A DNA stretch of 64,000 bases from Isurus oxyrinchus. Taxonomy: Eukaryota. The stretch's first letter is position 1. Every line of letters begins with the position of its first letter. Below are positions 6,542 to 61,678 of the stretch, piece by piece. The notes below the pieces were generated by a model that was not told the DNA's origin, did not search any database, and saw only the letters and a program-made list of their open reading frames with translations. The DNA lies in assembly GCA_026770705.1 (NCBI GenBank), contig JANJGN010000042.1, positions 620,001 to 684,000 of the forward strand, read 5' to 3'. Position numbers and translations under genes: made by a program.

Positions 6542-6669
6542 ATTCCACAGAACGCATGTGGATTGAAGGCAATGAGGACGATAACGGGAACGTCTGCACA
6601 ACAGCTTCCACATCCATTGCCCTGTTCGTCCTGAGCATTTTCTACAGAACTGCCGTCACTCTGGTGAAT
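6542..6669 (+). CDS. Immunoglobulin heavy-chain membrane exon TM1 (IgM-like), copy 1, partly degenerate
   Basis: Acceptor ttatattcctatAG, phase 1, then (D)STERMWIEGNEDDNGNVCTTASTSIALFVLSIFYRTAVTLVN, donor GTGAGA at 6670. Matches the IgH TM pattern: acidic spacer + [W]TTASTFIVLFxLSxFYxxxVTLxK. Confidence 0.85.
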
Positions 6670-6809
6670 GTGAGAAAATTGAATTTACTAACACGACAAG
6701 CTGACAGAAGCGGTTTGAAAACTTTCTTAATGTTTCAACGATTAAGATCTATAACATAAATGCACCAAATCATAAACATCTGCTTCAGTATATTTTCCCT
6801 CTTTTACAG

Positions 6810-6818
6810 ATCAAGTGA
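6810..6818 (+). CDS. IgH membrane exon TM2 (IK*), copy 1, followed by 3'UTR
   Basis: Strong acceptor ttttccctcttttacAG then ATC AAG TGA, after a 140-nt intron. Equivalent to the VK* of IgM TM2. The poly(A) signal position reads AATGAA (7239-7244) where the other copies have AATAAA. Confidence 0.8.
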   Translation: MK

Positions 6819-8276
6819 TCGGTTGAATTTCGGACCCCGTAGCTTTTCCTTTAATTCCAATTTAAAATGTGCTCTCTTGGTCACTGTAAAAGTGAAATGT
6901 TCTCACTTTGTAATTCCCGATCTGTAACCGACCTGCCACAGAATTTCCGTTTTTCTGTTTGTAATGTGCGAGGTGTTAATGGTCGTAATGAAATTGGAGC
7001 ATCTAATTTCCATGGACTTAGAATTCCATTTGTCTTTAATTAACTTTTCTCGTTCCATTTTCACTATTGTTCCCTTCCCTTTCCGTTGAGCTGCTGTTTT
7101 CTCTTTCTGATCTATGTTTCCGTGGTACATACGATTTACCAACTCAGAGTGCATGTTCCCAATGTGACGCTCAGGCATTATATTCACGTCTGTTAACCAT
7201 TACATAAACTTTCATGTAAAATATTCTTTGAAATTGCTAATGAATGTGGAATGTAAAGTGAACTAACTATGGCTTTGCTGAATTCCTTTTTCTGCGGTCC
7301 ATCGACACTGCTCCATTTTCCCTATTACACATTTCTCCCTATTTCACCAGTCCTGTCTGGGATCTATTTGCCCAGAAGGCCCCAATGGGCCACGCATCGC
7401 CCCTTCCGTGCAAAGGGACCTTTACCTCTGCCTGTTTCTGGCGATTGCCTGAGGCGGAATGATTGAACAGGGAGGGCCACCTCGGTGATTTGACTCATAC
7501 TCTGGGCGGTCACAGTCACATGTCAGGTAATTTTATACAGTAGCGTTCGACTTCATCAGAGGCTGACGCATGACAGGATGTTGGATCAGAAATCTTCCTT
7601 TACACTGCCCTAGCCAACACTCCCACGGTTGGTACAGCCAGGGTCATAACAGGGTTAAGATCCCTCTGCATTGTCCAATTAAACACTTTGAAGGCAGGGA
7701 TGCCGCTGGCTAGATATATAACACAGGCATAATTGGGAGCATTAATCAAGGGGCGATTCCAGAGACTCGAACGTGTCTGGCACTGATATATGATCGAGTG
7801 AAAATCCTGTAAATTATTACAGAGCTTTAGGTCTATTGCACATACCAGGGGGACAAAACCGCGAAAATGCGAAAAGACGGGGTTCCACGTGATGCAGCAA
7901 GTAAACATAAACATGGGGCTTGTTCCTTGATCCTGGGGCCTATCGAATACTGAGACACTGGTTTCGAAGTATTTCTTAAATACATAAACAGGCATTACTC
8001 GCACCCCACCAAACCAACGCCTTTCTGTTAAGAACATATACGGTCCACATTCCGGTAAATACACACTGACTGTCCACTTCCAACTTTTCTTTTAAATCGA
8101 TTAGCCCTGTCATTCTCCCTTTTCCTTCGATTGTGAACTGTTTCCCTTATCTGCTCATTCCCCCTGATACCATCTCCTTGTTCTCACTGAGCATAACCCC
8201 AGGGATCCTCTCTCCCTGCTCCAATCCTTCTGATACAATCTCCCTGAACTAAATGAACATCACCCCAAGGTTTCGT

Positions 8277-8460
8277 AAACACAGAAAATGCTGCTAAACC
8301 TCAGCAGGCGGACAGCACCTGTGGAAGAAGGAATAGAGTTGACGTTTCGAGTCCGTCTGATGAAACGTTATAGCTTTGTTTCTGTCTCCACAGATGCTGT
8401 CAGACCTGCAGAGTTTTCTGTGTTTCTGTCAGATTTCCAGCATCTGCAGTTTTATTCTTT
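8277..8460. mobile_element. Short palindromic Penelope terminal-repeat insertion
   Basis: Inverted arms (cagaaaatgctg..cagcacctgtgga / tccacagatgctg..cagcatctgcag), flanked by the probable target duplication atcacccc.agg / atcaccctcggg. Confidence 0.7.
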
Positions 8461-8764
8461 TATCACCCTCGGGGTTTTGTTCCATCTGCTTCATTGTTTT
8501 TTCAGTGGTTCCTTCAGCGCCTCCCAATCATGGGAATATCAGGAGAAGTTCTCTCCACGACATTTCAACATTTTCTCTAATATCCCAGAGTTCACGGGCG
8601 AGGTTCCTTGTTGTTGAAAGTAGGAAGAGTGAGGCAGGGAAAAATTACCGACGCGTCTTAAAGACTCGGAATGCTGTTTGTTAATCGGTGAAGTTACTGT
8701 TAAAGCCTTTATCTCTCCCAATCTGACTCCCATCCTCTTCCACAGCCATTTCAGGACATTTCAA

Positions 8765-10880: not shown

Positions 10881-11099
10881 TGTGACAATCTTTCAGTGCA
10901 GTGCAGAAGGCGTTCAGAACATTTGTTGAAAATGCATGGATCACCAAAAGACCTTCTGTCTGCCATTTATTATCCAGTCCTTGCAGCTCTCGGGGTTCCA
11001 GGTAAAGTATTGTAATTAGTATTTTGATACGGAAATTGGTTATCTGCAGGAATTCTACCTTTTAAAAGCATTGTATATCCATAACGTTATACCCATGCT

Positions 11100-12660: not shown

Positions 12661-14824
12661 TAATTTTCAATAATTATTGCCAATTATTATATAGGAAAGG
12701 AACTATATTGATCTTCAGTGAGATATAATCCGCGCCCTTGTTAGTTTCCACACTTCTTGTTGCTTGTTTTGTTACTTACCTTCGTCATTATTTCCTGCAA
12801 TGCCTTGCAGATGCTTACACTTTCTTCTTGCTTATACAAAAATTCTAGGTTGGTTTCTCAGTTTTAACGATGTCTTTTGTTCTCCATTAGTTTTTACTAA
12901 AATATTTGACATTCATATAACTTTGACCTGACCTATATTGAATTAAGATTTCAATTTACAAAGCTGAATCACTTGCCCATTGCAATTGCGCAACTGGGGA
13001 ACACATCTGAAAGGTACAAATTCATGCAGAATCCTATACAATTGTTGATTTGTTTATAGTTTGAGCAGTAACCTTCCTGTATTCGTTCTCTCCCAAACTC
13101 ACACGCACGCAAACTCAGTCTCTTTCCACCTTCTCTCTTTCTCTCTCTCTCTCTTTATTGCAGCTAACCTGGCGGTGATTGTGATCCTTTCTCGAGTGAA
13201 ATGCGGCCTCTCCACCTGTATAACCTATTATTTACAATCCCTGGCGGTGTCAGATCCCCTGCTCATTATAACCGCTGTGATATTGAACCGGATTGCTGGT
13301 ATTTATTTCCCACTCAGTTTCCTGTCAATCACACCAGTATGCAGTCTCCGTGAAGCCTTAACATATTCAGCCATAGACAGCTCTGCCTGGTTAACTACAG
13401 CTTTCACCTTTGATCGATTTGTGGCCATTTGTTGCCAGAAGCTGAAAGTAAAATGTTGTTCCAAAAAAACGGCGGCACGGGTTATAGGGACAATCTGCGC
13501 AATCAGCTGTGTCAAAAACACCTTCCAGTATTTTATATACGAATCTTTGTACATAATTGACAATGTGCCCTGGTTCTGCGATGTAAAAGTGATATTTTAT
13601 ACCTCACTTGCATGGATCGCCTATGACTGCATTCATCACATTTTAACCCCTTGTCTCCCATTCATTCTGATTTTACTGCTCAATGTACTGACAGTCAGAC
13701 ACATTCTCGCAGCCAGTAGAGCTCGCAGGAGACTCCAGACCCGGAGAAATGGAGACAATCAGCGTGACCCTGAGATGGAGAAGCGGAAAAAGTCCATGAT
13801 TTTACTCTTCTGTTAATCGGGAAATTTCATCCTGTTATACTTGTTAATTTTTATAACTTTCCTCTATGTGCAAATTGGAAATGTTAAATACTTATCAAGC
13901 TCGGAAATCAATCTTTCAACATTCATTCTTGAGGAAAAAACATATATGCTTCAGTTTTTGAGTTCCTGCGCAAACCTGTTTATTTATGCAGGGACCCAGA
14001 GTAAATTCAGAGAGGTGTTAAAGAATGGGGTGAAATATCCACTACTTGAAATTGTTAAATCGTTTGGACGATAAGGACAGCAAAATCCAACTTCAGCTGT
14101 ACACAAGATTCCATCCTTGCCCCTTCTTGTCGATGCCACGCATTGTTTTCCATTCTAGTTCACAGTCACTCAGTTTGAAAATAAGACTGTTAAAGGCGCA
14201 ATACATCCGAGCACGATTAAGTGTCAGTATCTGTTCTCTGGTAGTTAAATGTTCTCTTCCCCATATTTTCTGTGGTCTGTCTTATTCCCATCAGAATCCA
14301 GGGTCCTTGTAGTATCTCTACGTTCATGTGGACGGCTAAGTGTCGTATCTCTGATTTCTTACACCCATCCAACATGAAATGTGGATAAAGCAACCACAAT
14401 CTCCCTGCGTCCCGCCCCAGTAATGATTCTAATCTTGATGGTTGGATACGCTTCGAAATGGATGCACATACTATCCTCAGGAATTGTTCTCCACTGACCA
14501 AGCACCGCTTTACAGCAAACACCTGAGCCCCTAAATATACAAACAGCAGACTGGGGGATTGCGATGGCAAAACACCATCAATTCATCTTCTGCACTTTCC
14601 GTTGGCCAATTGGGAAGAGTCCCATCTCTAAAGGGGCCCCAAAAATGACCAACAAAATCATTTTTCAAAAAGTTAGAAAACTGCATAAGGACATGATCTT
14701 CATTTATCATTTCTAAATCTTCAGCCGATTTCGTTTCCTGCTGTCCTGTTAGCCACGTTGATAAAGGTAGAAGGGATTTTTTTATTCGTTCAATCGCTAA
14801 ATGCTCTTGTTCTGAGAGCATTTA

Positions 14825-18560: not shown

Positions 18561-19084
18561 CTGACCTTCTGTCTGCGCTGTGCCAATCTGGTTTTGGAAT
18601 CATTAAAGCTACTGCTAAGCGGTAGCTAGAGCTACAGAAATGCTCTGGCTCAGCTTTCCCCGACATTCCTGTACGAGGAAGGAGGACTTTACACCTCACT
18701 GTTCCCTTGAAACCTGTTCTGAAGTGCAGGTGAGAAATGTGGAGCTGCGGGGCAGGGAACGGTGAAAATGGCGGAATGGCCATCCAAAGCTGATTACCAC
18801 TTCCGGGCCATCGTGTTTCATATTCCGCAGCTGATGAAAGCTTCCTTTATAAATCTTCAAACCATCAACATGAATATCGATAGTTTATGGTGAGACGGGA
18901 TTCCCCTGTCAGATCCATCCTGTCTGCCCAGAATCTAACATTCACACATTCTGTCCTTGAAAGAGCTGCAGTCAGAGAAATCATTGTCTACCTCTTTCTG
19001 GAATGTGCTTTTGGGAGAAGGTCTGGAAAATGATGGTCCAGCTTCATCCCGATCAGCTCCATAAAACAGGATTTTGTTCTCTCC

Positions 19085-20830
19085 GGGCCGAGATTATAAT
19101 CCTTTGTTTGTACTTAACAGTTGTACCCTCCAATAATACTTCCAATAACATGCACGCCCTGCAAATACATTGAAACAACGCTCTCACTTAGAAACTGAGT
19201 TAAGTGAATGATTTTCCAAGCATTTCCATCACATATTATGAAAGAAGATGAGATTCCCCAACTGATCACATAAGTGATAACACCCAGAGCCTGCAATTAC
19301 TAGCCATAAGTACCTATCGTTAAAATAACCGTTTTGAACTAGTAATTTTCCTGCGTTATCCAGTAATAGGTCATATGAAATTGATCCAAAACACACTGGC
19401 ACTGAATCTTTAAAAATACAATGTACTGATACGGACAGCATGTGGAATGTAAAGCAAGAACGGCTGTGGTGTTAGTAACCTCTTTTACAGTTTAAGTGAT
19501 CGGTTGATTTTCGGACCTCCTTGGCTGTTCCTCAGTTGTTTATTGAGATCTCTGTATTATGACTTTAAAATATGTTCTCCTGGTGATGCTAACAGTGAAA
19601 TGTCTTCATTTTATGATTCTGAATCTGTAATTAAGACATTCGTGGACAGTATTTCCGCCTTTCTGTCTGAAATGCGCGAGATAATTATTATTTTAAAATA
19701 ACTGTAGCTTATAATTTCACGATAGCTTGAATTGCATTTGTAAATATGTCTTTTCTTTCGCTGTTATCCCCTTCCCTTTATGCCAAATTTCTGTTTTCTC
19801 TTTCTGGCCTATGTTACACTTCTACTTACAGTTGGCAGCTCAGAGCATATGGGGTTGTCTCAATGTGACCCTCAAACGATAAATTCACTTTTGTGACCTT
19901 TAAATGAACTATTTCTACAAAACATGCTCTGAAATTGTTAATAAATCTTAAATGATAAGTGCACCAAGTATGACTTTGCTGAATTCATTTCTCCTCGCTT
20001 CATCGACATGGCTGCATTTTCCCTATTTCACGTTTTCCTCCTTTCCCGACTGGTATTTATCACGATTCCTGTCTGCAAAGTGTTTGAACTCGAGGCCCTT
20101 CAGTCAAAGAGCGATTCTCCACACAACGCCCCACCTGTGTAAAGAAATGTTTACCCCTTCCCTTTTATGGTAAAAACCAGAAGCAGAATGATGGAATGGC
20201 GAAGAGCAACTCAATGACTTCTCTGATCTGTCACAGTCAGCGTCGGGTCGTTCTAAATAATAAAGGCACTCTTCCTCAGAGGTTAATGCAGCACAATGTT
20301 TGAGGAAGAATACGTTCTTTACATATCACACAAAATATTCCCAGGCCTCTACAGCTCTGGTTAGGCGTGGAGTAAACTGCCCCCACCCACGCCACCACCG
20401 CCCCCCCCCCCACCCCCACCCCCACCCCCACCCCCCTCCGCACTGTCCGGCTAAACACTTACAAAGCAGAGAAGTTGCAGAGCCGATATATAACACTGAT
20501 ATTGCCGTTGGCACAACCATAGGCTAATTCCTAGAGGCCAGGAGATATATGGCACATAAACACCATCGAGACAAAATCTTGTCGGCCTTCTTATGCTGAA
20601 CCGGGCAAAAAACATGAGAACGATTCCGAGAGATTGGGACCAATGCAGATCTGATATAGACATACTATTGAACAGAAACTCTACAAGCTTTCGCTAGAAT
20701 TTGTATTCCCTCAGGCTTGAGAGGGAGCAGAACCCGTGGGACATTGGGGCCTCGATGACACAAAAAGGAAATCAGCCTAAACAAAGTGATGTGGTGCAAA
20801 ACCTGGGGCCTCTCTAATACACAAACCCTA
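19085..20830 (+). pseudogene. IgH membrane 3' end, copy 3: TM1 deleted, TM2 (FK*, 19491-19499) and 3'UTR retained
   Basis: Aligns to about 5980-6370, then jumps directly to cttttacAG TTT AAG TGA. AATAAA at 19940-19945. Similarity continues to cctggggcct.tc.aatac at about 20800. Confidence 0.75.
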
Positions 20831-21719
20831 ATGCCTTCTCTGGCACTTGTAGTTTCTTTGATCTGGAAGCTGCATGACTACTTGAACCCCTTATGAAGAC
20901 AACTGCAGATAGTACGTCCACACCATGAAAAGCTGCCTATTCTTTAAGGATTTCACACTGGCAGATCTGGCCTCTTTATGCAGGCATGGACTATCCAGTG
21001 AATTGTAATTATTGTTTACCCACGACACAAATCCATGCTTCCCCACATCAACTATTATTACTGAAACTAAAAGAAAACACGAGTTACCAGATTGGCTAGT
21101 CATAACACTTGATATCATGCGAATTGTCAAAACTAGCATGAATTACGTCTTGACTGAAAGAATGAAACGAGGGCTGAGAGTTAAAATTTCGCATCAGGTT
21201 TTGGAAAATTCACGTGTCCAATGGTCGAGAACAGCTATAGAGGCAGAGATTAGAAGTGAAGGAAAGGGGTGAGATGGGCTGTGCTAATGCACAATGCACA
21301 AAAAGTTAACTGACTAAAGATGGTGGTGTAAGGCTGAATATGGGTTGCAATGGGAGAGATGTTTCTGCTTGCTGTTTACACAGATACACACATTACTCCT
21401 GATCAACCGATCACAACTGACCTTTGAAAGGAGCACTCCAGGCCGGAGTTGTTTCTTCGCTGCAACAAATGGCGCAACTCCGCCAGGTTTACAACTCGTT
21501 TTGTGTTGCAATGTGGAGAGTGCCTAATTTCAAAATGAGAATACAAATATTACAACTTTGATTTTAAACATTGAATCATAGTACAGATACTGAGTATAGT
21601 TGTTTGAATTTTCATGGTATTACTAATGATTGAGAAAAAGTAATTATACATTTGGATATTTGCTGGACATAGATTCTAACATCCTGAAATTCATTACAAG
21701 CTGAGGCACCAGGCGGAAA

Positions 21720-21940
21720 ACAACAGTTGTCCTCCTGTAATAACTGGCATGGCGCCTGAGTCTAAATATTAAAACCTTCCAAGCATTCTGGTAGATCAGT
21801 GCCGGCCTGCTTCTAGACCAATGTTTATCATTTCTAATGTTCCGTTCCCAGAACTTTACAAGTAATCCAGCATGTAATCTAACCAGGGATTTGTACAGCT
21901 GTAGCAAAGCTTTTCTCCTTTTCTGTTAAAGCCTCAGTTC
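21720..21940 (-). mobile_element. CR1 LINE RT C-terminal fragment
   Basis: Reverse ORF LLQLYKSLVRLH..V.FW, typical of the CR1 ORF2 C-terminus. Confidence 0.6.
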
Positions 21941-22351
21941 ATGGTACAGTAAATGGACTTACACTGTGCACATCCATTCAGAGTAATGAAAACCCTCTTG
22001 ATCAGAAAAAAACGACTTTTGGCTCTTTGGTATGAATTCAATTGCACGAGTAAACACTGCATATGTCGAAAACTGCATAAGAATCACAAGCCCAACTCTT
22101 CGTGTCTTTCCATCAGGAAAGTTTGTTTATTCAGGCAATCTGTGCGAGCACACCGCAGAAAATCCTTCAAAAGGGAATTGGCCAATTACTTGCAAGAGGA
22201 TATGGAGCCCAACACATGTGGTCATTCAACATAATTGACCAAAGCATCATTTACTCCGTCAATGTTAGAGTTGGATATCAATACTTCATGACAATTAGGC
22301 ACAATATCGGTTAAAATTCAAAGGGTAAAGTGATGCTTCTGTAACAGTATT

Positions 22352-22992
22352 TTTATTCATTCATGGATGTGGGCGTCCCAGGTCCAGTCAGCATTTAATG
22401 CCCACCCGTAATTGCCCTTGAGAACATGGTGTTAATGAGCTGCCTTCTTGAACTGCTGTGGTCCATGTAGTGTAGGTACACCTATGTTCTGTTAGGGAGG
22501 GAGTTCCAGGATATTGACCCAGGGACATATAAGGAACAACGACATATTTACAAGTCAGTATGATGAGTGACTTGAAGGGGAAATTCCAGTTGTTGGAGTT
22601 CCCATATATCTGCTGCCCTTGTCATTCAAGAAGGTAGTGGCCGTAAGTTTGGAAGGTGCTGTCTAAGGTGAATTCCTGCAGTGCATCTTGTAGATGGCAA
22701 ATAGTGCTGCCACTGTGTACCAGTGGTGGAGTGATGAATATTTGTGGATTGAGGGTCAATCCCGCGGGCTGCTTTGTCCTGGATGGTGCCAAGCTTCCTG
22801 AGCGTTGTTGGAGCAGCACTCATCCAGGCAAGTGGGAAGTATTTAATTACACTTTTGACTTGCACCTAGTAGGTGGTGGGCAGGCTTTGGGGAATCAGGA
22901 GGTGAGTTAATTGACGCAGGATACCCAGCCTCTTCCCTGCTCTTGTAGCCACAGTGTTCAGATGGCTATCCCAGTACAGTTTCTAGTCAACG
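22352..22992 (-). mobile_element. LINE 3' fragment, same family as 1-1205
   Basis: Reverse complement of about 560-1200 (YFPLAWMSAAPTTLRKLGTIQDKAAR), including the 3' tail. Confidence 0.85.
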
Positions 22993-22994
22993 GA

Positions 22995-24165
22995 TGTGTC
23001 AGGGGAAGAGTAGATCAGGATTAGAAAAGCCAGCGTGAGGCAGGATGCTTTGAACTGACAGAATGTGTAAGGTGTTGTGAACAGTTGACGTAGTGTAACT
23101 TGTGTCAGGAGTAGATTTCGTTGGCAGTTGAGGAATGGTCGGGCTTGTAGTCCAGTTCAAGTGGGGCAGGATATCTCGGGGCAGAAATGGTCGGGCGGGT
23201 TGGCTGGTTCAGGCTGTCTGCTGGGTCGGAGAGGTAGAGTGGGTAGTATAGTTCCAGTGGGTTAGAATAGTCCAGACTGTAGGATAGTCCTTGGAGGCAG
23301 GATGGGTTGAGGTGGGTAGGTTGGGCTAGGAGAATTGGATGATTCAGGGTATGATACTTGGAGTGCTGTATGATGGGCTGGAGGTTGGACGGGGCGAGTT
23401 GGGTTGGGTGTGCCATTCGGGATGGATGGATCAGGGGTAGAATGGTGGAGCGTGGTAGGATGTTTCAGTGATGTAATCTGTGGCTGGCTGGTTGGATGAG
23501 TTGAGTGGGGCAGTATGGGTCAGGGGCATAGGATAGTCCCGGGTTTAGGGTAGGTGGAATGGGATAGGAAGGATCGGGTGGTAGCATCGTTCAGGGGAAT
23601 AGGATACGTTGGGATTAGGATAGGTGGAGTGGGTAGGATAGGTCGGAGGGTGTAGAATTAGTCCAGGGGTATTTTGTGTCTGCGGGTGTCTAATGGTCAG
23701 TCGAGGCGTGGGTGAGGCTATTTGCGGAGGGAGGAATAATCGGGTGGTGTTTTTGTAGCCGGGTTATTCAGGGGGATGGGGTTGTAGTCCGGGGTAGGAA
23801 GGTAGTCAGGCTGTCAGGAGGATAATCAGGGCAACCGAGTGAGGAACGGTGGAGGGGAATATTGTGGGTCAAGTCTGGAATCGGGAAGTAGGAAATTATT
23901 TCAAATCCCCTAACTTTTCCTGGATACCTATTCTGCTAAGAGTGGTGGAGCTACGTATGCTCTGCAATTTAAATTTGATTTCCAGATGATTCCAAGGCAT
24001 CCAGGATAATTTTCCATCAGAAGTTTGAAGTTCCTGTGCAATATCTGTGTAATGTTTACATGAGTAATTCCTGCGGGGGCCCGGGTGCATCTTCTGGGGT
24101 ACTTACTGCGCACAACCCCTCCAAATCCACGTACCGAATTCGGAAGTTTGGTGCGAATGACAATG
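22995..24165 (+). repeat. G-rich low-complexity arm plus conserved core (same family as 1530 and 17050)
   Basis: About 900 bp of gggtagga/gtcggg-like units, then ttttcctggatacctattctgctaag and catcagaagtttgaagttcc. Confidence 0.6.
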
Positions 24166-24430
24166 GTTCCCTGAATATAGTCTGCTCTGACGCTAAATAC
24201 AATGCTCTCTGCCCTGTAACTGGAATGATCTCTGTCCCCTAATACAATTTTCAATGTCCCCTAAAACAATGACCACTTTCCCATAACCATAATGATCACT
24301 AGCTGCTAAATACAATCTTTAAATGTCCCCTAACTACAATGATCATCTTCTCCTAAATTCAATCATTAATGTCCCCTGAATGCAATATTCATTGTCCCCT
24401 AAAAATAATGTTGATTCCCCCGTAAATGGA
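24165..24430. repeat. ~23-bp minisatellite
   Basis: tgtcccctaa.tacaat unit repeated every 22-24 bp. Confidence 0.75.
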
Positions 24431-25849
24431 ACAATGCTCTCTCTGCAGGGAACATTTGTCAGAGCTCCGCAAGCGATTATTTAGAAGTTTACTAGAAAAG
24501 CATCATATTACCGCTGCTTTAAATGTTATTTATGGATAATTATTTTAAAATAGACTCGGCACAGTCACAGGGCCCTGTGTATTGTACCCAGTTCGGTGAG
24601 TCTGCTTTTATCAGGGAGCTGCTGATGCTGTTGATAACTTCCAATGTTTTTTCTTTTTGTTTCTTTATGAGATTTTCAGATTTATTTCCATGTTACATAG
24701 TTGCCTTTGAATTACTTTCATCTTTTTCAGCTTGTGATTACTGGCTGTAATGGCTTAATTACAGTATGACATTTTACAACTATGCTTTGTTCAAATACAT
24801 TAAGTGTAAAAATTAAAGTAATCAGGGATTCAAGCACATCATTAAACCGAGATGAGATACGGACCAAGGTGTGGCCTAAAACAGAGCAATTCTATTTCAT
24901 TGATTTATTAACCTGTGTTTGCTTTTCTACATATAATTTCCAATCCCTGTTTTGTAGATTCCAGCCGATCATAGAAAACACACTAATTTAAATCATGAAG
25001 TCTTCTTAATTTCACAAAGCTCAAATGAACATGTAATTAAGAAAATACTTTGAAATGGAAGTCGATCTGTAAGTTTACTAAGCTAGATATCGGGCATTGT
25101 TGTTTACGTGTCGTCTCAGAGGTGAAACACAATTGTTACCTGTAACTGCTAACCAGACCTCCACTTTAATAGCAATTTCTCAAAATGCACAAATCAAACC
25201 AAGAGGATAATTACTTTTTATTTTAAGTTTCAGCTTCTTGTTCCGTTGCCAGAACTCTCCTTTTTAAAAAATTCTTATATATTTGTAACAAAGTGTGACA
25301 CATGTTTTGCGATGGGACAAAATAAATGCATTGGCTCCAAGACTAACTGCAAACATGCAAACGTAAATGATAGGTTGTTTGATAGTGGCAGAGAAACTAA
25401 CCAATCAATAGAGACATTCATTTTGAGTGGAAAGGTTCGGCTCTTTTAAAGATAACAAGTTTACTTAATGTCAGGAGACCTAATTGTTCTAAATAAACAT
25501 CAAAGAGGTATTTGAACTTAATCATTATTTAATTGTCATTGGGCCAGTTTGGTGCAGGACACTTTCTAGTTGTGGACAAAAACGCCCAACACTTTAAGAT
25601 ATTTTTTTCGCGGTATGGCCGAACCTAACTCTGAATGGTGATAGAAACCTGGAATATTGGCGGAACGGTACGATTCGAAATATGATTATGTCAGCCTGTT
25701 GCCTGACTGCTCTCTGGGGCAGATCTCATGCATCCACATGTGTGTGAAGAAGACTTTACAGGATCGACAGAGCTGACTGTCATTTTGTTGTTTCTGGTGC
25801 TTAGCTCGATGCCGGGTGTTCCATCGCTTCTATTTTCAAACATTTGCTC

Positions 25850-26180
25850 CCACTTGCAAGGCCAGTTAAGGGGGCAGTTGTCACTCCACTGCACCTCCCT
25901 GGGCGTAGCGTCACATAGAGGCCAAACTTGGGAAAGACAACTGAATTCCCTCACGAAAGTATATGAATGAAACGGATTGTGCTAATTCATGAGAATGCTG
26001 TAGTTTCATGGTCATCATTCATGATTGCTCTTTTTTTAATTTTCAGCTTACTTTCGTGAACTGAACTTATGTTCATCAATTGACGTGGTGGGATGTACAT
26101 TTTCGTCCCTGAATCACTAACCTTGCCTTCAGATTTACTAGTCCATGAACATGACCTCTATTCCAACATACACCAAGGCA
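25850..26180 (-). mobile_element. tRNA-derived SINE
   Basis: Same body (ggcagtt..gtcacatagaggcca..gtttcatggtcatcatt..gtggtgggatgt) as 14825 and 54350. Confidence 0.6.
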
Positions 26181-28113
26181 ATTGTCTACCAACGAGATAT
26201 AGAGACTAGGGTTCAATTGAAAATATCAAAACTGAGATTCATAGGATTGGGTACCAACGGCTTTAAACTAAGGTGTCCAAATGGAGACATTCTGCATATT
26301 ATCAATGCACTAATTGAAGGACAGGGAAGATTCCAGGACCAGAATATCCTTCTCCATTTGCTATGGATCAACAACTTCGGGATAGGATCCAAAATTGCAC
26401 TGGTAAATGCATAACTGAAACCAGAAACCAGCTATAGTCAGCAATTTCTGCAAAGCAGCGAGAAGGGAACAAGGAGGCATAGAAGAGCACCAAGCAGATT
26501 GGAAAAATGGTCGCCAGTATAGTAAGTATGACTATATTTCAATAGTCAGTGTGACAGCAAAAAGAATGTGATGCACACTGGACAGAGAGTGCTCCAATGT
26601 AATGGATGTAGACAACGTTTTAGCTGGTTAGCACAGCATGAATAAATAAAGGCATCGCACCATACACAGTGGGGAGAGGTCTTGCACGTTTTCAATGACT
26701 GGACGAAGTTTCAACAAATCATCCAACCTCAGTAGCACAAGGATGCGGTATACTGCGAAACATTGCAAATGAGGACACTGTAGGACGGGACTTGCTTCCT
26801 CAGCCCGACTGCAAATTTATCAATATATTCCCACTGAGAAGAAGTCGTTCACATGCTGCATGGATTAGGGAAGATGTTAACAGTTGTTTCTTCTTCTCGC
26901 AGTCCGTTATGTTCAAGAGGTAGACGTAGGAAAAACCTTTCAAATGATATGTAGTTGGCGAGTGACTCAGTCGTGCATTTCAATTGCTGACAGATGAGTG
27001 AAATTTCAAGTAGCAGCAGAATTTCAATTATGTTCTTACTAATGATGTTAATCACATCTGGGGTTATTTAATAATCTGGACAAAGGGCATATAAAGCGAA
27101 GGCTAATGGATCAGTTTCGGCCTGACATTGAAAGACCTATCGAGGTATAACAAGTAATTACTTCCTTACTCACGATCTTCCGCTGGCAACAGTGACAAAT
27201 ATTGAGACCTGTGCCGCATTTTGCATTTGGGGAGCAGGAGAACTGCCATACCCCAAGCGCATGTGCAGTACTCACCCGAGATTGGGATAATGATTTGTTG
27301 CAATGAGTACCCCATAATATCTCTGGCGTGACATTTTGTGGCTATCAGGATGGCAAGAAATGTGTTTGTGCATGGTCAGTGGGGAGCGGCAGTGCTGTAA
27401 AATGTGGCGAGTCATTCAAAAGCTCATTGGCATTTGCAGAACCAAAAAATCTCGCCGCCGAGAGGGGCCATTAAATTCTGAATTTGCCATTACATTTGAT
27501 GAGTTATTTTTAATAATTCTGTTGGTCATGATTGATGCCCATTGACATTAAGACACTGTTGTTAGACTCGATTTATGCTGTTTGATAACACTGGAAATGT
27601 CATCATAATTGTCCGATTGAAAGTGTAGAAGGCGAATTACTGTTGTTCATTTTTTCCTGCCCCTTATTCCTATGTTCAATGACAAGGGATAGCGAGTGTG
27701 AAGCGGTGACTAGTGAGTTGAGAACAATGCATGGGAGCAGCATTTGTTACCATTTCAGAACGCCTTTTACCTCCAAGGTATAAACTACACAAAGCAATAA
27801 CATTGAGGTTCCTACCTTAAATTGTTAAATTTTGGTATCCAATATCAGATCTAAGTCGGACTCTCTGTCTCCCACATGGATTTACAAGGCCCTGGGGGCT
27901 GGTAGGGATGTACCAGGCCCCTGCTAGCACGAGGAAGACAACTAAAAATTAACGGGGAGCAGACAACGTTCTTTATACATTGTTAAATTCACACAGAGGA
28001 AAAGGGACTCAAAGCAAATGACGCTGCTTCCGGGAGACTAGACTAAGTGTGAGATAAACAAAAGCAGCAATGGATGGAACACAAATTATGACTCATGTTG
28101 GATTTTATTGATA

Positions 28114-30354: not shown

Positions 30355-30405
30355 TTCTCTCAAAAGCTCCGAGTGTGCTCTGTGCTACACCGAAAGACTG
30401 TTACA

Positions 30406-30499
30406 TTTATACATGATGTCGGCCTCTAGGGAGACAAAGGGAAGGTTTGGCCTTTTACATTAATTACACTAACTGAAAAAAAACATTTTAGTGCAGCTG
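30406..30499 (-). promoter_or_regulatory. GPCR gene 2 proximal promoter module
   Basis: Minus strand: CAGCTG 30499-30494, TCCCTAGAG 30432-30424, TATAAA 30411-30406 (57 nt before the ATG). Confidence 0.6.
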
Positions 30500-30959
30500 C
30501 TGCCGCGCTCGCATTTATGTTTTTGATGGAATAGAATCTGTTTTCAAGCACACTGGCGCGGCTCCAAATTGAAATAATCTGATAGGAGAGTACGGTCCAA
30601 GTTGCATTTTTTCCTAAAATTTAAATAACAAGCCAAACAAGCCATTGTAATTGTGAAAGTGAGCACTGTGCACGAGCATCCATGGCTTTAAACTCCGCAG
30701 GAAAACATTACAATGTTCTCACTCTTGATCATTTTTCAGGCCGTGTGAACACGGATCACGTGTAATGTGGCTCCCTTTCCCTTCTGGAATGAGGAACCAA
30801 TCAGTAGCCATCCACCCTCAGCCTCTCTGCCTGCTTGGACGTCAACTCACGACGAAAAGCTTCTCAATTAACTCTGTAAATGAAACTCCAATGCTATGGG
30901 TGTTGGCATGTGTCCTATTTCTGTTTGGCTTTTAGATGGATTTGCAGCAGAATCATTGT

Positions 30960-43689: not shown

Positions 43690-46035
43690 TTTCACACTTG
43701 AAGGAAACCATGTCGATGAAATCAGTGCGAGAGTGAGAGAGGGATATTGGCTCAGAAAATCTAGATGTAGATGCAACCTGGGTGGAGCTAAGAAGCAACA
43801 ATGAGTGGAAAAGATCACTTATCTTTAGACATCCAGACAGCAGTGTCGACATAGGGGACGGCATAAAACAGGAACTTGGACTTGCATGTAACAAGGGTGC
43901 TACAGAAATCATGAGTGACTTTTAACTACATATAGAGTGTGCAAACCAAATTAGCAATAATAAAATTGCGAATGGATTCCTGTAGTGTGTACGAAATGTT
44001 TTTTTCCGGACTCGTATGTCGAGGAACGGACTGGGGATCAGGCTAACCTAGATTTGGTATAGTGAAATGAGATGCATTAAATTAATAATCTTGTTGTGTG
44101 GGGTCTTTTGGGGAACATTGACCATAACATGATAGAATTCTTCATTGGAATGGAAAGTGAAGTAGTCTGGTCTGAAACGAGGGTGCTAAATCTTACAAAG
44201 GAATCGACAAATTTAGGAGATTTGAGTTGGCTAAGATCGATTGGAGTACCTTATTAAAAGGAAAGATGGTGTGTAGACAAAGTCCAATGATTAAGGAACG
44301 AGTACATACATTTCAAATGTTATACTTTCTTTTCTGGCCCAAAAGAGCAAGACAGTAAAAGCGGCCCAACCATGGGTAAAAAAATAAATTAAGGATAGCT
44401 TTAGATCCAAAGAGGAGTCGTATGAAGTTGCTAGAAAATTTAACAAGCCTAACGATTGGGAACAGTTTAGAACTCAGCAAAGGACGACCAAGAATTCGAA
44501 TAAGGGGGGAAAATATTGGATGAGGATAAATTTGCAAATAACATAAAAACGGTCATTAACAGCATCTATAAATATTTTTAAAAAAACCTTACAGTCTGAA
44601 ACGGGAGACTTTATAACAGAACAATTACTTTTGCTCGGTCTTCACGTAGGGAGACATAAATAGCTTCACAGAAATACGATGGAATCTCGGGTCCATTGAG
44701 AAGCAAGAATTCAACGAAATTAATGTTACTAACACAATTGTGCTGGAGAAATTAATCGGACTGGAAGCCAATCAATCCGCATGCCTGATAATATACGTCT
44801 TGGGGTACTAAAGGAGGTGGCCATGTAAATAGTGAGTGTAGTGGTTGTCATCTTCCAAAATTATGTAGATTCTGCAACAGTCCCGGCAGATTGCAGGGTG
44901 TTAAATATAACCCCGCTATTTTGAAAAGGAGTGAGGGAGAAAACAACGAATTGCAGACCTGTTAGCCGAACTTCAATAGTAGGGAAAATGCTAGAGTCTA
45001 TTGTAGAGTATGTGATAACAGGACTCTTTAAACTTATCAATGGGTTGAGACAAAGCTAACATGTATCTATCAAAGGAAATCATGTTTAACAAACCTACTG
45101 GAGTTTTAAAGGACGTAATCTGCAAAAAGGATAAGGGAGAACCAATGGCTGTGCTGTAGTTGGATTATCAGAAAGCCTTTGACAAAGACCCAAAGTTAGC
45201 GTGTAAAATTAAAGACAGGAAAGAAAGCAGGAATAATTCGGTCTTCTTTGGAGGGGCAGGCAGTGACGAGTGGACTAACAGGGATCAATGCNNNNNNNNN
45301 NNNNNNNNNNNNNNNNNNNNNNNNNNNNNNNNNNNNNNNNNNNNNNNNNNNNNNNNNNNNNNNNNNNNNNNNNNNNNNNNNNNNNNNNNNNNNNNNNNNN
45401 NNNNNNNNNNNNNNNNNNNCGAGAGGATTTGAGTGCAGGAGCAACGATGTCTTACTGCAGCTGTGCATGGTCATTGTGAGATCACACCTGGAGTAGTGTT
45501 TGCAGTTCTGGTCCCCTTACCTAAGAAAGGATATACCTACCGTAGAGGGAGTTCAGCCAAGGTTCATCAGGCTGTTTTCTGGCCTGGCAGAATTATAGTA
45601 TGAGGAGAGCTTGGGCCGGCTAGGCCTTTATTCATTGGAGAACAGAAGAATGAGAGGCGATCGCATTGAAACATATGAAACTCTGACAGGAATGTACAGA
45701 CTGGATGCGGGGATGATAATTCCTCTGGCTCGGGCGTCTAGAACAAGGGGTCACAGACTCAGGATACGGGTTAGACCATTTAGGACTGAGATGAGGAGAA
45801 ACGTCTTCAATCAGAAGGTGGCGAGCATTTGGAATTCTCTAGCACAGAAGGCTTTGGAGGTCAAGTCACTGGATATATTTAAGAAGTAAATAAGTAGACC
45901 ACTAGCCTTCAAACGCATCAAGGGGTGTGGGGAGAGAGCCGGTCTAAGGCGTTCAGATAGAGGATCAGCCATCATCAAACTGAATGGCGGAGCAAGCTCG
46001 AAGGGCTCGAACAAGTAATCATACTCCTATTTTCA
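43690..46035 (+). mobile_element. CR1 LINE ORF2 (endonuclease to 3' tail), degenerate, containing an assembly gap
   Basis: REDIGSENLDVDATWVEL.., NCRPVS.TSIVGKMLES, DYQKAFDK and LGRLGLYSLE.RRMRGD.IETY. 3' tail gaatggcggagcaagctcgaaggg. Confidence 0.92.
45292..45419. other. Assembly gap (128 N)
   Basis: Run of n characters. Confidence 1.
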
Positions 46036-47098: not shown

Positions 47099-49457
47099 AT
47101 GCATGGATTGCCAAAATGTCTGATTTTCATCATATACTATCCTGTCCTTGCAGCGATCAGGATTCCAGGTTAAGGATTTTGGTTTGCTATGTTATTGAAA
47201 TCATTGTTTAATCACTTTTCTTTGGTTTGCTTTCATTTTAGTGAATCGTTGTTCGTATTTAGCAGCTTTGCTTCTGCATGGTACGATATTCTTTCTCCCA
47301 TTAAACAGAACAATCTATCAACATTACGCGACATCTTTCCACTTTAACAGCTCGACAATGTCACTTTTTTCCACTTCAAGGGAAATGTTTAATTTAATTC
47401 TCCATTTTAGCAACAAAATTGTTTTCTTTTACTGACATGATTAGTCGTCATCACATGTCGAGTCGCTCAAGTTTTTCCGTGTCATTTCTTCCCTTGTACA
47501 TAATTTCTCCCCAACGCCAGAATAATAGTTCAGCAGTAACAATGCACTATCTTCCCTGAGCTAGTAATATTTAGTCAGTTTAATTGGACACTTTCATCTG
47601 TTTACCTCCACCGTTCGAGGTTTCAGATGTTATTTTATTTTATGCTTGGTGTTTTTAAAAAAGGTTATGTATAACGCTGTTACCACTGAGGAAATGTTTT
47701 TCTGTTGTGTCAATGGCATTCTCATCGTGTGTGAATTATTACAGAGGAACTGTATCTGTATTATCTCATGCATTTCCCTTTCACCTATCGCTCCGATATG
47801 AACAGTATTTATCTGATAAATTTGTGCAGAATATTAAATGACTGGCCGAGAGTTTATTGTCTTAGCGGAAACCTGGCACCCTGGGCGGTGAAGACTTCTC
47901 AGGGAGCTGAAGTTGGTCTTGAATCCAGGATCTTTTGACTCCAAAGCTAGACGACTTTCAACTTAGCAGCAATTGAACCTTTAACTGTGTGTGGATTTCC
48001 TCACTGCTGTGAAGGACAGTTGTGTTCGCTGCAGGTCATCATAACTCAGGAGTTGTAGTTACCCTTTATTTCCATCCAAAGGAGTTTTTTTTCCCATTTT
48101 AGCTGTTTTCATTTGCTGGATTATGCCCACAGCAGCATCACTTTGTATTTAATTCCATTCGAAGCCATCTACTGAGTTTCTATCAAATTATTAGGTCGAT
48201 TTAACATTGTGTCCCTTCTGTTTTCCAATGTTCTATCCTGTTCTTATCTAAACAGCAAGCAAGAGGATACTTGATCGTTTTTCAATGAACTGAGTAAAAA
48301 TTCTGCAATTTGAATATTCACTATAGGGCCGAGCCCGCATTCTTCCTGTAAATCAGCACAGTATTGACGATTTGCTGTATTTTGGAATGAGTCTTTCTTT
48401 CTCCACTGGAGCATATAAGTCATAGGACTGAAATGGGAACATTGCTCTCTTTTCATGACCGATGCTGTATTTGTGAGTTTCTCAATATTTTCTGTTCTAT
48501 ATTCATTTGTCCCCACCGCAAATTTACTGGTTATATTCCTCTGTCACAGCTAATTTGGCAGTAATTGTGATCCTGTCTCGAGGAAGATGCGGTCTCACTG
48601 GATGTATCACATACTATCTGATGTCGTTGGCCGTGACGGATCTCCTGATCATGATCCTTGCTGTGATGTTAAACCGGATTGTAGGTACATATTTCCCATT
48701 TAGTTTCCTTTCCATCACTCTGGCCTTTGCTCTCAGTCTTTTGTTCATATATGGCGTCAAGGATTCTTCTGTCTGGGTGACAGTTGCTTTCACCTTTGAT
48801 TGATTTGTAGCCATTTGTTGCCAGAAGCTGAAAACCAAATATTGCACCAAGAAATCGGCAGCTGTGGTCATAGGAACTGTCTGCGTTGTGCATTGTGCTA
48901 AAAAAATACCCTTTTACTTTGCTTGTGAACCTTCTGTTATCACAGACAATACACCCTAGTACTGCAAACTAAAGCCAATATATTATTCATCACCCGGATG
49001 GGTGGTACATGACAGCATAAATGCCGTTTTAACCCCTTGTCTCCCATTCGTTCTTATTTTGCTGCTCAATGTTCTGACGGTCAGGCACATTGTTGTGGCC
49101 AGTCGAGCCCGCAGAAGACTCCGAGCGCACAGCAAGAGTGAGAACCAAAGTGACCCAGAGATGGAGAAGAGGAGAAAGTCCATCGTTTTACTCTTTGCCA
49201 TCTCGGGAAGTTTCATCCTGTTATATTTCCTCGCTCTTATAACTTTCCTTTATGCACGAATTGCCAGCGTTAGTTATTTCGATGGCTCGAATTTCAATCA
49301 ATCAAATGTTATACTGGAGGAATGCAGACTTATGCTGCAGCTTTTAAGTTCCTGCATCAACCTGTTTATTTGTGCAGGTACCCAGAGTAAATTCAGAGAG
49401 GAGTTAAAGAATGGCTTGAAATATCCATTGAGTCTGATTGTTAATTTATTTAAATGA
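47099..49457 (+). pseudogene. GPR139/142-like GPCR gene 4, two exons (47099-47168, 48550-49457), two in-frame stops
   Basis: Exon 1 MHGLPKCLIFIIYYPVLAAIRIP + G|GTTAAG; acceptor ctgtcacAG. TGA at 48801 replaces the Arg of DRF (CGA>TGA) and TAG at 48957 replaces the ECL2 Trp. No frameshift. Confidence 0.92.
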
Positions 49458-55560: not shown

Positions 55561-55594
55561 TTTTCCAAGGTCTTTCAAAATTTGTGTGCAGAAT

Positions 55595-56000
55595 TAGGCT
55601 TCGCTGGCTAGGTTAACATTTATTGCCAATCACTAATTGTCCTTCGGAAGTTGATGGTGAGCCGCGTTCTTGAACCGCTGCAGTCCATGTAGTGTACATT
55701 CAGGTACAGTGCATTTAGGGAGGAAGTTCAAAGATTTAACCTCCATGACAGTGAAGGAACGATGATCTGATTCAAAGTCTGGATGGTGTGTGGCTTGGAA
55801 GAGAACTTGAAGCCGATGGTGTTCTTATTCATTTCCTGTGCTTGATCTTCCAGGCAGTAGAGATCGTAGGTTGGTAAGATGATGTCTAAGAAGCCTTGGT
55901 AAGATCCTGAAATGCATTATGTAGGTTGTTCACAACTGCTGCCGCTTTGCATCGGTGCTGCAGGGACTGAATGTTTGTCGATGGGGTGGTAATAGACAGG
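55595..56000 (-). mobile_element. LINE 3' fragment (family of 1-1205), interrupted by a CR1 and resuming at 57187-57230
   Basis: Colinear with 22375-22760. The continuation tgctttgtcctggat is found after the inserted CR1. Confidence 0.75.
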
Positions 56001-58450: not shown

Positions 58451-58499
58451 TTTGCCCGTTTCGAGGTTCAGCCAGCATCAACATTTGCATGATTTACGT

Positions 58500-58950
58500 C
58501 ATTTAGAAACATTGTGTTTCACTTTCTTACCGCTAAATTGCACAACTTCACATTTCTGCACTTTGTACTCCGATAGAAATTCCACTCCCTTAACCTTTCG
58601 ACATCAATTTTCAGCCTCCTTGCGATCTCCTCACAGCTTGCACCCGCACCAAGCCTTGAATCGTCAGCAACTCTGTTATTTTCCAGGTCTTTTCCTAAGT
58701 GATTAAAGCAAATTGTAGCAGAGGCCATCATTGAAAGTTGTGGCACTCCACTAGTGACAGCCTGCCAGCCTGCCACCCTGAAAATGCCCGGTAAACCATA
58801 TTATTTGCTTCCTCGACATTGACCGATCTTCTACCCATGCTAATGTATTCGCTTCAAACCCATGAGTCATCATCTTGTGAACTAACCTTTGTGTGGAATC
58901 TTAAGGGATTTATGTTCGAAATCCAAGTGTACAGCATCAACTGGTGTCAA
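58500..58950 (-). mobile_element. CR1 LINE RT fragment
   Basis: WQAVTSGVPQ and VADDSRLG on the reverse strand. Confidence 0.75.
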
Positions 58951-61394
58951 AATGTATCAAAAACGATGTCACTAGCATAACCCATGAAGATTTCCTCCAA
59001 TCATAGCATAAATATCTTAATGAATTGTTCAGAATTCTAAACAATCGATTCCCACAGTTCCTAGCGACCAAAGAAAGGCTCATTGCAATTCTGGTCTACA
59101 TGTGGCATTTATTTTTTACCATTCCTATCTGTTGAAGTGCAAATACTGTCTGTCTCTCCTATTCGAAACATCTTCCTGGAGCTAATCTTTATCAGGTTTT
59201 GCAGTCGACCATCTTCAACAGCTTTGTTACCTCCACAAATTCAGCCATTGTTGTTGTGTCTTTGAGCTTCGGGTCATTATCAACTGCATTAAAAAAATAG
59301 GTTCAAATAAGGAGACTCTAGGATATCCACTTTAGGCCAATTCATCTCTGTATCCATGCCATATAGGCACTATTCATCAACATGCTAGTAACACCTTGTG
59401 AAATATATCCACCGATTCTAGCAACTGATTCCTAGATGAACTACGTGCAAGGACTGAAAAAGCCAATTGTATCGCATCCATTAAATGGATCCTACCTGGT
59501 GAAGTTGAATGGCACAGACTCCCTTTCATGGACATATATCCACTACATATTGAGATTACTTTGCATCCATCTGTTCCGTGGCTTTACTTGCAGCAACGGT
59601 TGCTCAGGAGTACACACTCTGAACATCAACTCAATACTTTGTACTTTCCTGGATCAAATTGGCATCTGCTTTCCTGGAGCACCAGCCACTCTTTAATGGT
59701 CAGGACTTCCTCTTTAATTTGTGTGCGGCACCCTGCAATGTGCTTACGTATTTGCATAAGGAAGCTCGATTAAAGTTAACTGGCCACGTAGGTCGACGAA
59801 TCAGAATTGAATATTGGACAGCTGTTCATTAACCATGTTGATCGCAATGTGACCTGAGTCACAACGATTCTCTGACACACTCTAAAAAAAGTCATTTTTT
59901 TATCCATTAAATGCGTGGAGGTGTTTTAAATATCTGCAAGAAATTCGCCTATTTCCATGTCTCTACTATCTATAAAAGTATGTATTTCTGAGTCCCAATT
60001 ATTGATCATTGAAAATTTGTCTGTCTCAATATCCCACTCCAATAACATGAAAAAAAATACAATATTAATTTATTGTGCTCTCTTCGGAGACTGTTTATAT
60101 ATGCAAGAGAAAATGCTGGACACATTTCGTTGACTGGATAACATCTCTGGATTGAGAACAAAAAAACAGGTAACCGTTTCAGGTTGATGAGCTATCAACG
60201 GAACTGCAAAAGTGTTAGGGGAGTTTTATGGACGTGCTGATTGGATGTTCAGTCAACATGCGTGGACTCTTCAGTGGACATATTCGTGAAAAATTCTTCT
60301 TGAACAGTTAATCACTTGAAATTTCCCAATCATCTGCAAATGTTGCGGCATTTATCTCAATGGGCATTCCTTGATTTATGAAGCATTACCATTCTGGATG
60401 ACCCCGAGTCTTAATCTCATTTAAGATCATAATTTCCAACCAATAGTTTGCCTCGGCTTAATCTTCAATCTTGGTCAGAATTAAATTACTTTGCCATTTA
60501 TCCTCATGTGTTTCTGATATTCTTGTATTTGGTCACATTCATCCTTAGCATTAGCAAAACCTCAGCCCTTCCTAAGTTAGCGTGGTACGCAATTTTTTTA
60601 TACTATACTTCCCAGCACTGAGATCATCTCATTCAAGTCCACGGTCGAAAATGGTGGCTAAAGTTGCTATCCCCATGGATTATTACTGCTACTTGGCACC
60701 CGTAGTACTAACTATATTCAATTCCTGTTCTCTGTATTTCTTTTCTGTTTGTTTTACTTTGGTAGTAGAGGTTAAAAAACCAATGGGAATATCTGGACAT
60801 TTTAAATAAGTTATTCATGGTGACCTGTGTATGCACAAGCTGAACACGTGGTAGAAGCAGACTGGATAATATTTCTTCCAAAAATGAATCACTATTCAGA
60901 AAGGAAAATAAATTACTATGAGAAAGAGCATTGGAACCGGACAAATGGAATAGCACTTTCAGGAAAAGGAATAATGGGTGTACTGGCCTCCATCTGTGCA
61001 GTGCAATGCTAAGCTTTGTTATCCATTCAGCTACCGCAAAACTGAAATAAAATATTAATAATTTTATCCTCAAATAAAGAAACGGCAATAAAATGGTAGG
61101 CAAACGTGCACAAGTCAAAAAAGCAATGGCGTAAACATAACAAAAGACACTGGATGGTGAAGACCTGAATGTTCTGATGAAATGGCGTCGACGTGACACC
61201 TTGGCTTTCCATCTTTCTCCTCGTGAGTGTTATCTGTTTCTATCTAATAGCAGATACTTTCATATGGATAAATTCCAGCTTCATTCCGACATCGCATGAT
61301 TTTAAATGTATTAAATGATTTGTTGTTGTTATTTTTTTTTTGCTGAGATTAATTGAGGTTCCCATTGGCCAACCTCTCGGTAATATCCGCGTAG

Positions 61395-61522
61395 ATTCAA
61401 TAGACCGCATCTGGATTGAAGGTTATGAGGACGATAACGGCAACATCTGGACAATAGCCCCAACATTCATTGTCCTGTTCTTCCTGAGCATTTTCGACAG
61501 CGCTGCCGTCACTCTGGTAAAG
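61395..61522 (+). CDS. Immunoglobulin heavy-chain membrane exon TM1 (IgM-like), copy 2, probably an orphan
   Basis: Acceptor atccgcgtAG, then (D)SIDRIWIEGYEDDNGNIWTIAPTFIVLFFLSIFDSAAVTLVK, donor AAG|GTGAGA. 128 nt, the same as copy 1. Confidence 0.9.
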
Positions 61523-61669
61523 GTGAGAATATTCAATCCTAGTGGATTGAACACTACAATCTGACAGAAGCGGTTTGAAAACTTTCTAAATATTTCAACA
61601 ATTAAAAACTATAATATGAATGCACCAGATCATAAACATCTGCTTCATTATTTTCTGCCTCTTTTACAG

Positions 61670-61678
61670 ATCAAATGA
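61670..61678 (+). CDS. IgH membrane exon TM2 (IK*), copy 2
   Basis: ttttctgcctcttttacAG ATC AAA TGA gives a KIK cytoplasmic tail (IgM has KVK). AATAAA at 62133-62138. Confidence 0.85.
   Translation: MK

Follow-up and report, generated by a model that had tools for sequence, protein, structure and literature searches.

A duplicon in the antigen-receptor region of the shark Isurus oxyrinchus that probably carries severed IgM tails among GPR139-related receptors

In mammals, olfactory-receptor clusters adjoin the alpha/delta locus of the T-cell receptor (TCR), and this tandem family of class A G-protein coupled receptors (GPCRs) has no known functional link to the variable (V) genes next to it. 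The closest described system in sharks is the antigen-receptor complex of Flajnik et al. 2025 (PMC12227049), in which V genes of TCR alpha/delta type lie between miniclusters of IgM and IgNAR on shared contigs; Table S1 of that paper tags some IgM clusters 'pseudo?' or 'missing V' and places Ig/TCR intervals on white shark chr27, catshark chr17 (103-133.5 Mb), and stingray chr26, and IgM and IgNAR cluster counts are also given in PMC8692893. GPR139 is described in the covered parts of PMC12208981 as highly conserved and related to invertebrate peptide receptors, with sharks unmentioned there. Here we describe a 64,000-nt stretch of Isurus oxyrinchus DNA, hereafter the window (G000:C42:620001-684000; C-numbers denote contigs, in an assembly of 4.98 Gb in 5,558 contigs), in which membrane (TM) exons of IgM type are interspersed with GPR139-like receptor genes. 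The proteins of the window are closest to shark proteins by database comparison. The locus is like the antigen-receptor complex in that its contigs likewise combine IgM miniclusters, IgNAR miniclusters, and intervening V genes of TCR alpha/delta type, and our match to the complex rests on these three kinds of gene. It differs in that the text and two supplements of PMC12227049 have no GPCR or GPR139, and the sections covered have no orphan TM tails or duplicon. It is like the mammalian case in that a large tandem class A GPCR family and antigen-receptor V genes occupy one domain, but the receptor family is another one, and here it is mixed with whole and decayed immunoglobulin (Ig) heavy-chain clusters and with a young duplicon. 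A literature search, with most subscription papers outside it, found no study of the shark receptor family or of its place among Ig genes.

We consider it likely that the window represents a single copy of a duplicon from the antigen-receptor region of the shark, and that it holds three severed IgM tails, probably dead passengers, together with GPR139-related receptors, some of which selection probably keeps functional. The whole window (1-64000) is part of the duplicon, which extends past both ends and is 97-99% collinear with C38:12.52-12.58 Mb. The three tails, a, b, and c, all lie on the plus strand and are 69-79% alike. Tail a consists of a TM1 exon at 6542-6669 and a TM2 exon at 6810-6818 followed by 3′ flank (6810-8320), with 79% homology to an intact cluster over 5710-8320. 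Tail c consists of a TM1 exon at 61395-61522 and a TM2 exon at 61670-61678 followed by 3′ flank (61670-63080), and this part is 82-85% like intact IgM clusters. Both TM1 exons are 128 nt long, with AG/GT ends and open frames, and each is followed by a short intron and then TM2. Tail b keeps TM2 (19491-19499) and 3′ flank only (19479-20257); its TM1, present in paralogous units, is deleted at 19479, with 427 bp including TM1 missing against a C38 paralog that is 97-98% identical and 434 bp missing against C26. An earlier note on this DNA had described three same-strand TM1/TM2/3′ blocks, and this description stands for the copies at 6.5 and 61.4 kb and for the common strand, but not for the 19.5-kb copy, which has lost TM1.

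The same note had taken the TM peptides for Ig heavy-chain sequence, and database and homology searches bear this out. The horn-shark IgM membrane tail scored 49.7 bits on copy a and 46.6 bits on copy c, compared with at most 19.6 bits in 30 shuffled windows. With copy c as the query, the six best matches in the PDB were all membrane IgM (best E 5e-5), and a database search gave two matches, both shark Ig heavy chains at 84%; neither TM peptide gave a match in a Pfam search. A tree built from 25 TM regions placed each of the three tails in its own supported clade; a and c joined the long-intron IgM group of C38/C42/C49, and b fell on the same side as the short-intron group of C26. The order of events is not readable from this tree because it is midpoint rooted. 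Homology above chance, together with grouping with TM exons of clusters that bear the IgM constant exon Cmu4, argues for an IgM origin of the tails, and we read them as orphan remnants of three separate IgM lineages. An IgW or IgNAR origin was rejected on the same grouping with Cmu4-bearing clusters, and a repeated TM+GPCR unit inside the window was rejected on the separateness of the three lineages. Retroposition of tail c was not supported, as its TM1-TM2 intron is retained and an A-tail was unseen at the 3′ end.

A functional IgM minicluster would have Cmu4 3-6 kb upstream of the TM exons, Cmu1-3, and V, diversity (D), and joining (J) segments, and no such arrangement was found near the tails. 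No Ig constant or V exon was found in the window, and the only matches to IgM queries over C42:520001-904000 were TM1 exons and, at 828 kb, a single TCR-type V, with no heavy-chain constant (CH) or VH exon near the tails. Upstream of copy a, IgM queries found no CH exon within ~100 kb. As a positive control, the intact cluster at C42:119-139 kb yielded V, Cmu1-4, and TM in the same IgM search. Tails a and c share with the elasmobranch IgM minicluster (horn shark P23088 and the intact C42 cluster) the TM1/TM2 pair, the short intron, and the 3′ flank at 79-85% DNA identity; unlike it, the tails have no V, D, J, or CH exons, their TM residues are altered, and TM1 is deleted in copy b. The Trp and Tyr-Ser residues of the membrane region have a role in receptor assembly. 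Among the Cmu4-bearing TM1 exons compared, Trp was present in 14/14 and Tyr-Ser in 13/14, whereas copy a has Cys in place of the conserved Trp and Asn in place of Lys at the final codon, and the Tyr of the pair is Asp in all four c-type copies examined, one of which also has a stop. We find it scarcely credible that the orphan TM exons are still used, whether long-range or trans-splicing makes them alternative membrane anchors or they act as regulatory 3′ ends. The open TM1 frames and AG/GT ends of copies a and c, and the open frames of many paralogs, would suit such a use, but in young copies a frame of only 43 codons is expected to be open anyway; moreover, no CH exon was found within ~100 kb upstream of copy a, the conserved Trp or Tyr is gone, and some copies have stops, donor changes, or the TM1 deletion.

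The receptor part of the window contains four GPCR genes and one fragment. Gene 1 (exons 10932-11001 and 13164-14074, plus strand) is a pseudogene with an in-frame stop at codon 241. Gene 2 (exons 30354-30285 and 29024-28114, minus strand) encodes an intact 326-aa class A receptor and is the only intact gene of the four. Gene 3 (33683-34564, minus) is a decayed exon 2 with 7 stops plus frameshifts and no exon 1 match found, and the exon-2 fragment (36310-36462, minus) lies within an old tandem duplication (34403-36272 versus 36313-38200, 78%). Gene 4 (exons 47099-47168 and 48550-49457, plus) is a pseudogene with stops at codons 108 and 160. Genes 1, 2, and 4 share a structure of a 70-nt exon 1 and a long exon 2. 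The Pfam 7tm_1 match of the receptor has an E of 3e-22 and 79.9 bits (cut-off 30.5), and Asn1.50, Asp2.50, Asp-Arg 3.49-3.50, and NPxxY are present in 22-23 of 23 gene-2 copies, which points to class A (rhodopsin-like) GPCRs. The genes that the earlier note had called GPR139-like are thus real receptor genes, and gene 1 does start about 4 kb downstream of the first TM copy, at 10932, 4.26 kb past TM1; the alternation it had described is loose, the order being TM, gene 1, TM, gene 2, gene 3, fragment, gene 4, TM.

Gene 2 has 38 paralogs at ≥88% identity, 35 of which have no stop. Among 22 gene-2 copies (the window, its sister, and 20 fetched copies, all picked from stop-free ones), nonsynonymous divergence (dN) was 0.031 and synonymous divergence (dS) 0.079, giving a dN/dS of 0.39; intron divergence was 0.058, and the exon was without indels. 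The 95 nonsynonymous and 69 synonymous variants (p 4e-7) likewise indicate purifying selection on the gene-2 copies. The best PDB match is GPR139 (E 2e-6), at ~25% identity (71/284, counted by eye). The aromatic amino-acid receptors GPR139/GPR142 thus provide the best solved-structure match, and they share with gene 2 the class A motifs and Arg6.51, a residue called specific to GPR139/142 in the sections covered of PMC8807744. Unlike them, the shark genes have ~25% identity, lack Glu3.32 (positions 3.29 and 3.32 of gene 2 are not acidic, whereas GPR139/142 bind Trp/Phe through acidic TM3 residues), and exist in hundreds of copies in place of one conserved gene. Because Arg at 6.51 is rare among 120 relatives (Phe 40%, Leu 22%, Tyr 15%), we regard the window receptors as probable relatives and not orthologues of GPR139/GPR142. 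The Cys3.25 disulfide with the second extracellular loop (ECL2) is common but not obligatory in class A receptors. Gene 2 has Phe at 3.25 in 23/23 copies, and therefore no Cys3.25-ECL2 pair, whereas Cys is present in 98% of the 120 relatives. In the same 23/23 copies of this lineage, the TM5 proline is also lost, and Arg is found at 6.51 and 7.39. The pocket of the gene-2 lineage may possibly have been re-purposed to bind acids.

The wider family comprises at least 2,230 database proteins at E≤0.001, known through shark 'probable G-protein coupled receptor 139' RefSeq models with automatic labels; the best 120 are 55-74% identical and all from sharks. Among these 120, mostly from horn shark, the entropy of pocket-facing positions is 1.36 bits compared with 0.45 bits at intracellular positions, and just modestly above that of other outer TM positions (1.03, p 0.035). 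Such variability would fit a sensor repertoire and names no ligand. A 29-nt family motif has 328 exact matches in this genome. In the ESM Atlas, chordate 'GPR139' and invertebrate FMRFamide-receptor-like clusters were met, as leads only, and a whale-shark model joins a family receptor to C2H2 zinc fingers, which suggests zinc-finger neighbours or a modelling error. Six presumed-RNA runs yielded only short stretches matching exon 2, all from diverged relatives, and nothing long that was nearly identical to gene 2, which is evidence neither way.

The TM exons and the receptors recur together across the genome. For these comparisons, we used 150 TM matches out of 220 candidates genome-wide, 116 Cmu4 loci (150 entries minus 32 non-IgM entries and 2 split fragments), and the best 130 clade-A receptor matches (131 entries minus one split half) of ~8,000 first-look candidates. 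Clade A is the group with genes 1, 2, and 4, and clade B its ~50%-identical neighbours; both are similarity groups and not tested clades. An orphan TM exon is one without Cmu4 within 12 kb. By this definition, 42 of the 150 TM exons are orphans, 37 of which lie within 50 kb of a clade-A receptor, compared with 1 of the 108 Cmu4-bearing TM exons. On C38 and C42 together, 26/27 orphans are within 50 kb of a receptor versus 5.8 expected by random placement, while intact clusters number 0/21 versus 4.5 expected (P ~0.008). Likewise, 36/38 gene-2 paralogs have a TM exon within 40 kb, mostly 31-37 kb away. This fixed spacing is that of one duplicon, so the TM-receptor counts are not independent events. 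The earlier note's adjacency of tails and receptors thus extends well beyond this locus, but as one duplicon counted many times. Its suggestion that Ig 3′ ends and GPCRs were amplified together also held, with the orphan tails carried in a multi-copy duplicon.

The duplicon has the character of a segmental duplication, with non-repeat sequence of more than 1 kb at ≥90% identity in several loci. It is collinear with C38:12.49-12.58 Mb at 96-99% over at least 96 kb, the left end not being reached, and when the inverted sister copy is included the C38 match continues to 12.63 Mb. Window 27248-64000 is 99% like this inverted sister at C42:844-881 kb; at C42:880909-886889, the sister joins window 5983 to 27248, a 21-kb loss of tail a, gene 1, and tail b. 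The block occurs in ~30-38 copies at 88-99% identity in both orientations, and further parts of the duplicon are a receptor of clade B and a TCR-type V exon whose recombination signal sequence (RSS) is degenerate and has a 23-spacer. This V exon lies at C42:827748-828050 on the minus strand, with a degenerate heptamer, a 23-nt spacer, and a near-consensus nonamer; its alpha/delta type rests on the sequence pattern and on the 23-spacer RSS seen by eye, and its PDB matches are mixed Ig/TCR. It has 30 genome matches at ≥89%, mostly in the duplicon, with the six most diverged outside the core unit, and its next relatives (38-49%) are mostly among the IgM clusters of C26 23-40 Mb. We think it very unlikely that redundancy in the assembly, from uncollapsed haplotypes or misjoins, accounts for most of the copy number and the repeated adjacency. 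The assembly does have 5,558 contigs, several copies are on contigs of 1-2.5 Mb, and the closest copies are 99% alike. But the gene-2 exon copies are 93-99.5% identical in DNA and have distinct deletions, an inverted copy stands 160 kb away on the same contig, and 14 of the 38 gene-2 paralogs are on C38 and 9 on C42. In addition, DNA contigs of two public runs, one of them maybe from the source sample, cover 30/30 bins of window 18800-30600, with no single contig spanning it.

The sole Cmu4-bearing TM exon near a clade-A receptor is on C26, at a locus (5.90-5.96 Mb) with the look of a progenitor. Here stands an IgM cluster that lacks a V region and has stops in both Cmu1 and Cmu4; after it come tail a, gene 1, tail b (TM1 included), gene 2, and gene 3, in the order of the window. 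Window 4127-38697 is collinear with C26:5921146-5955373 at 80-88%, and copy a, collinear with C26:5923751 where Cmu1-4 are kept upstream, is the 3′ tail of a decayed IgM cluster. Within the same 200 kb of C26 lie two further remnants of Cmu3-Cmu4, along with receptor genes or gene fragments, roughly a dozen in number. These pseudogene remnants, at 5.873 and 6.043 Mb, form an inverted pair, and an intact receptor exon lies ~9 kb from each. At C26, IgM clusters that decayed amid receptors are thus observed directly, and with the orphan tails they uphold the earlier note's picture of a graveyard of Ig clusters. From this arrangement, we infer that the duplicon derived from a C26-like one with a breakpoint in the Cmu4-TM intron.

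The sequence of events may be put as follows. The more diverged C26 locus has its decayed cluster ahead of tails and genes in window order. IgM miniclusters and receptors would have been interspersed and subject to birth-and-death turnover, and decay of clusters between receptors would have left the tails of three IgM lineages. The block from tail a on is linked to another segment, which contributes gene 4, tail c, a receptor of the second clade, and the TCR V orphon, and this composite, present in ~30-38 copies, could have spread via unequal or ectopic recombination. Erosion is ongoing, as in the 427-bp TM1 loss of copy b and the 21-kb loss of the sister copy. Selection would act on intact receptors such as gene 2, putative small-molecule or peptide sensors with diversified pockets, and the Ig tails would be carried along. 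The Ig part is ordinary birth and death of IgM miniclusters, later multiplied by a young duplicon.

Several points weigh against this reading. The parent clusters of tails b and c were not found, and intact-cluster homology of tail c begins just 17 nt upstream of its exon, which a small capture event also explains. Cys3.25 and Trp5.43, found in 98% and 92% of relatives, are missing in 23/23 gene-2 copies including that of C26, so gene 2 is maybe atypical or impaired; the choice of stop-free copies favours a low dN/dS. The clade-A set is biased toward the duplicon, and the distances of intact clusters from receptors are therefore maybe overestimated. Some small contigs are possibly uncollapsed haplotypes that inflate copy counts.

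At the megabase scale, clade A resides among IgM, IgNAR, and TCR V genes, that is, in the shark antigen-receptor complex. The three kinds of gene, with V genes of TCR alpha/delta type, occur together on C38, C42, C26, C100, and C126. Among the best 130 clade-A matches, 127 are on contigs with IgM matches, 11 of which amount to 3.4% of the assembly, and the clade-A motif gave 93/93 matches on the same 14 contigs (C33 and C180 among them without an IgM match). Each of the ten IgNAR-type clusters lies 61-93 kb from a clade-A receptor, with 3.3 expected; closer inspection of two of the ten confirmed a V as VNAR in one case. The locus at C38:13.278-13.304 Mb and nine similar IgNAR-type loci make up another repeated unit of Ig and GPCR genes within this domain. 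Cmu4-TM spacing divides the IgM clusters into 58 at less than 4.5 kb (C26 23-40 Mb) and 50 at 4.6-6.2 kb (C38/C42/C49), and clade-A receptors share a domain with the latter group only. Indirect support for linkage of clade A to the Ig/TCR region comes from two catsharks. In Scyliorhinus torazame, the clade-A receptor XP_072357602 and the IgM V-C model XP_072357606 are on the same 330.8-Mb chromosome, four accessions apart, a proximity that assumes that RefSeq accession order follows position. In S. canicula, three receptors are on a 133,841,611-bp sequence compatible with chromosome 17, where Ig/TCR genes extend to 133.54 Mb.

These co-residence figures, the IgNAR spacing, and the catshark receptors favour the idea that clade A is functionally tied to Ig genes, being kept in the complex through regulation shared with Ig/TCR or through action on lymphocytes, with the tails marking clusters that died beside the receptors. 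We regard this as rather improbable. None of the 58 short-intron IgM clusters has a clade-A match within 1 Mb, the intact C38 and C42 clusters stand apart as given above, the IgNAR spacing likewise reflects one repeated unit, and another S. torazame receptor of that chromosome stands ~6,200 accessions away from the IgM V-C model. Horn-shark members are spread over at least 5 sequences, and the wider family is on many contigs without IgM matches: clade-B matches at 61-64% are on dozens of other contigs, the shared motif includes C18, C27, C29, C35, C39, C44, and C47 among the 100 matches listed of 328, and the exon-1 motif is also on C21, C35, C40, C53, C55, and C64. Moreover, co-residence in a duplication-prone domain requires no common function. 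Small contigs that lack IgM matches hold a great many clade-B receptors, with ~7,900 first-look candidates that are not copy numbers. From these results, we conclude that tight linkage of the receptors to working IgM genes does not hold. What survives of the Ig-linked receptor family proposed in the earlier note is the megabase co-residence of one clade; its link to working clusters, 1/108 within 50 kb, and to the wider family does not. A bolder version is that sharks have a private GPR139-related repertoire with hypervariable pockets, seated in the antigen-receptor complex, Ig/TCR-linked across shark orders, and serving innate peptide or metabolite sensing in leukocytes, with the young duplicon amplifying it together with dead IgM tails and TCR V orphons; this we hold to be a speculative proposal with the odds well against it.

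Other features of the window are fragments of high-copy interspersed repeats at 1-1210, 22345-22993, and 55591-55988, and an N stretch of 128 bases at 45292-45419.

The locus displays the death of shark Ig miniclusters and the re-amplification of their debris. One consequence is that counts of TM exons overstate IgM loci, as 42/150 TM matches are without Cmu4. The antigen-receptor complex also gains a large resident gene family, one that hides under an automatic GPR139 label. This receptor family is both sizeable and mislabelled, selection acts on one or more of its lineages, and one of its groups resides in the antigen-receptor complex; it may possibly have an immune role. Its size, 328 motif matches here and 2,230 database relatives, is at odds with the relative paucity of GPCRs in cartilaginous fishes stated in the covered parts of PMC8455134. 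Should the linked clade prove to be expressed in leukocytes, it would form a previously unknown innate receptor system next to the oldest Ig/TCR locus; otherwise, the locus would be a shark parallel of the receptor clusters that passively share antigen-receptor domains.

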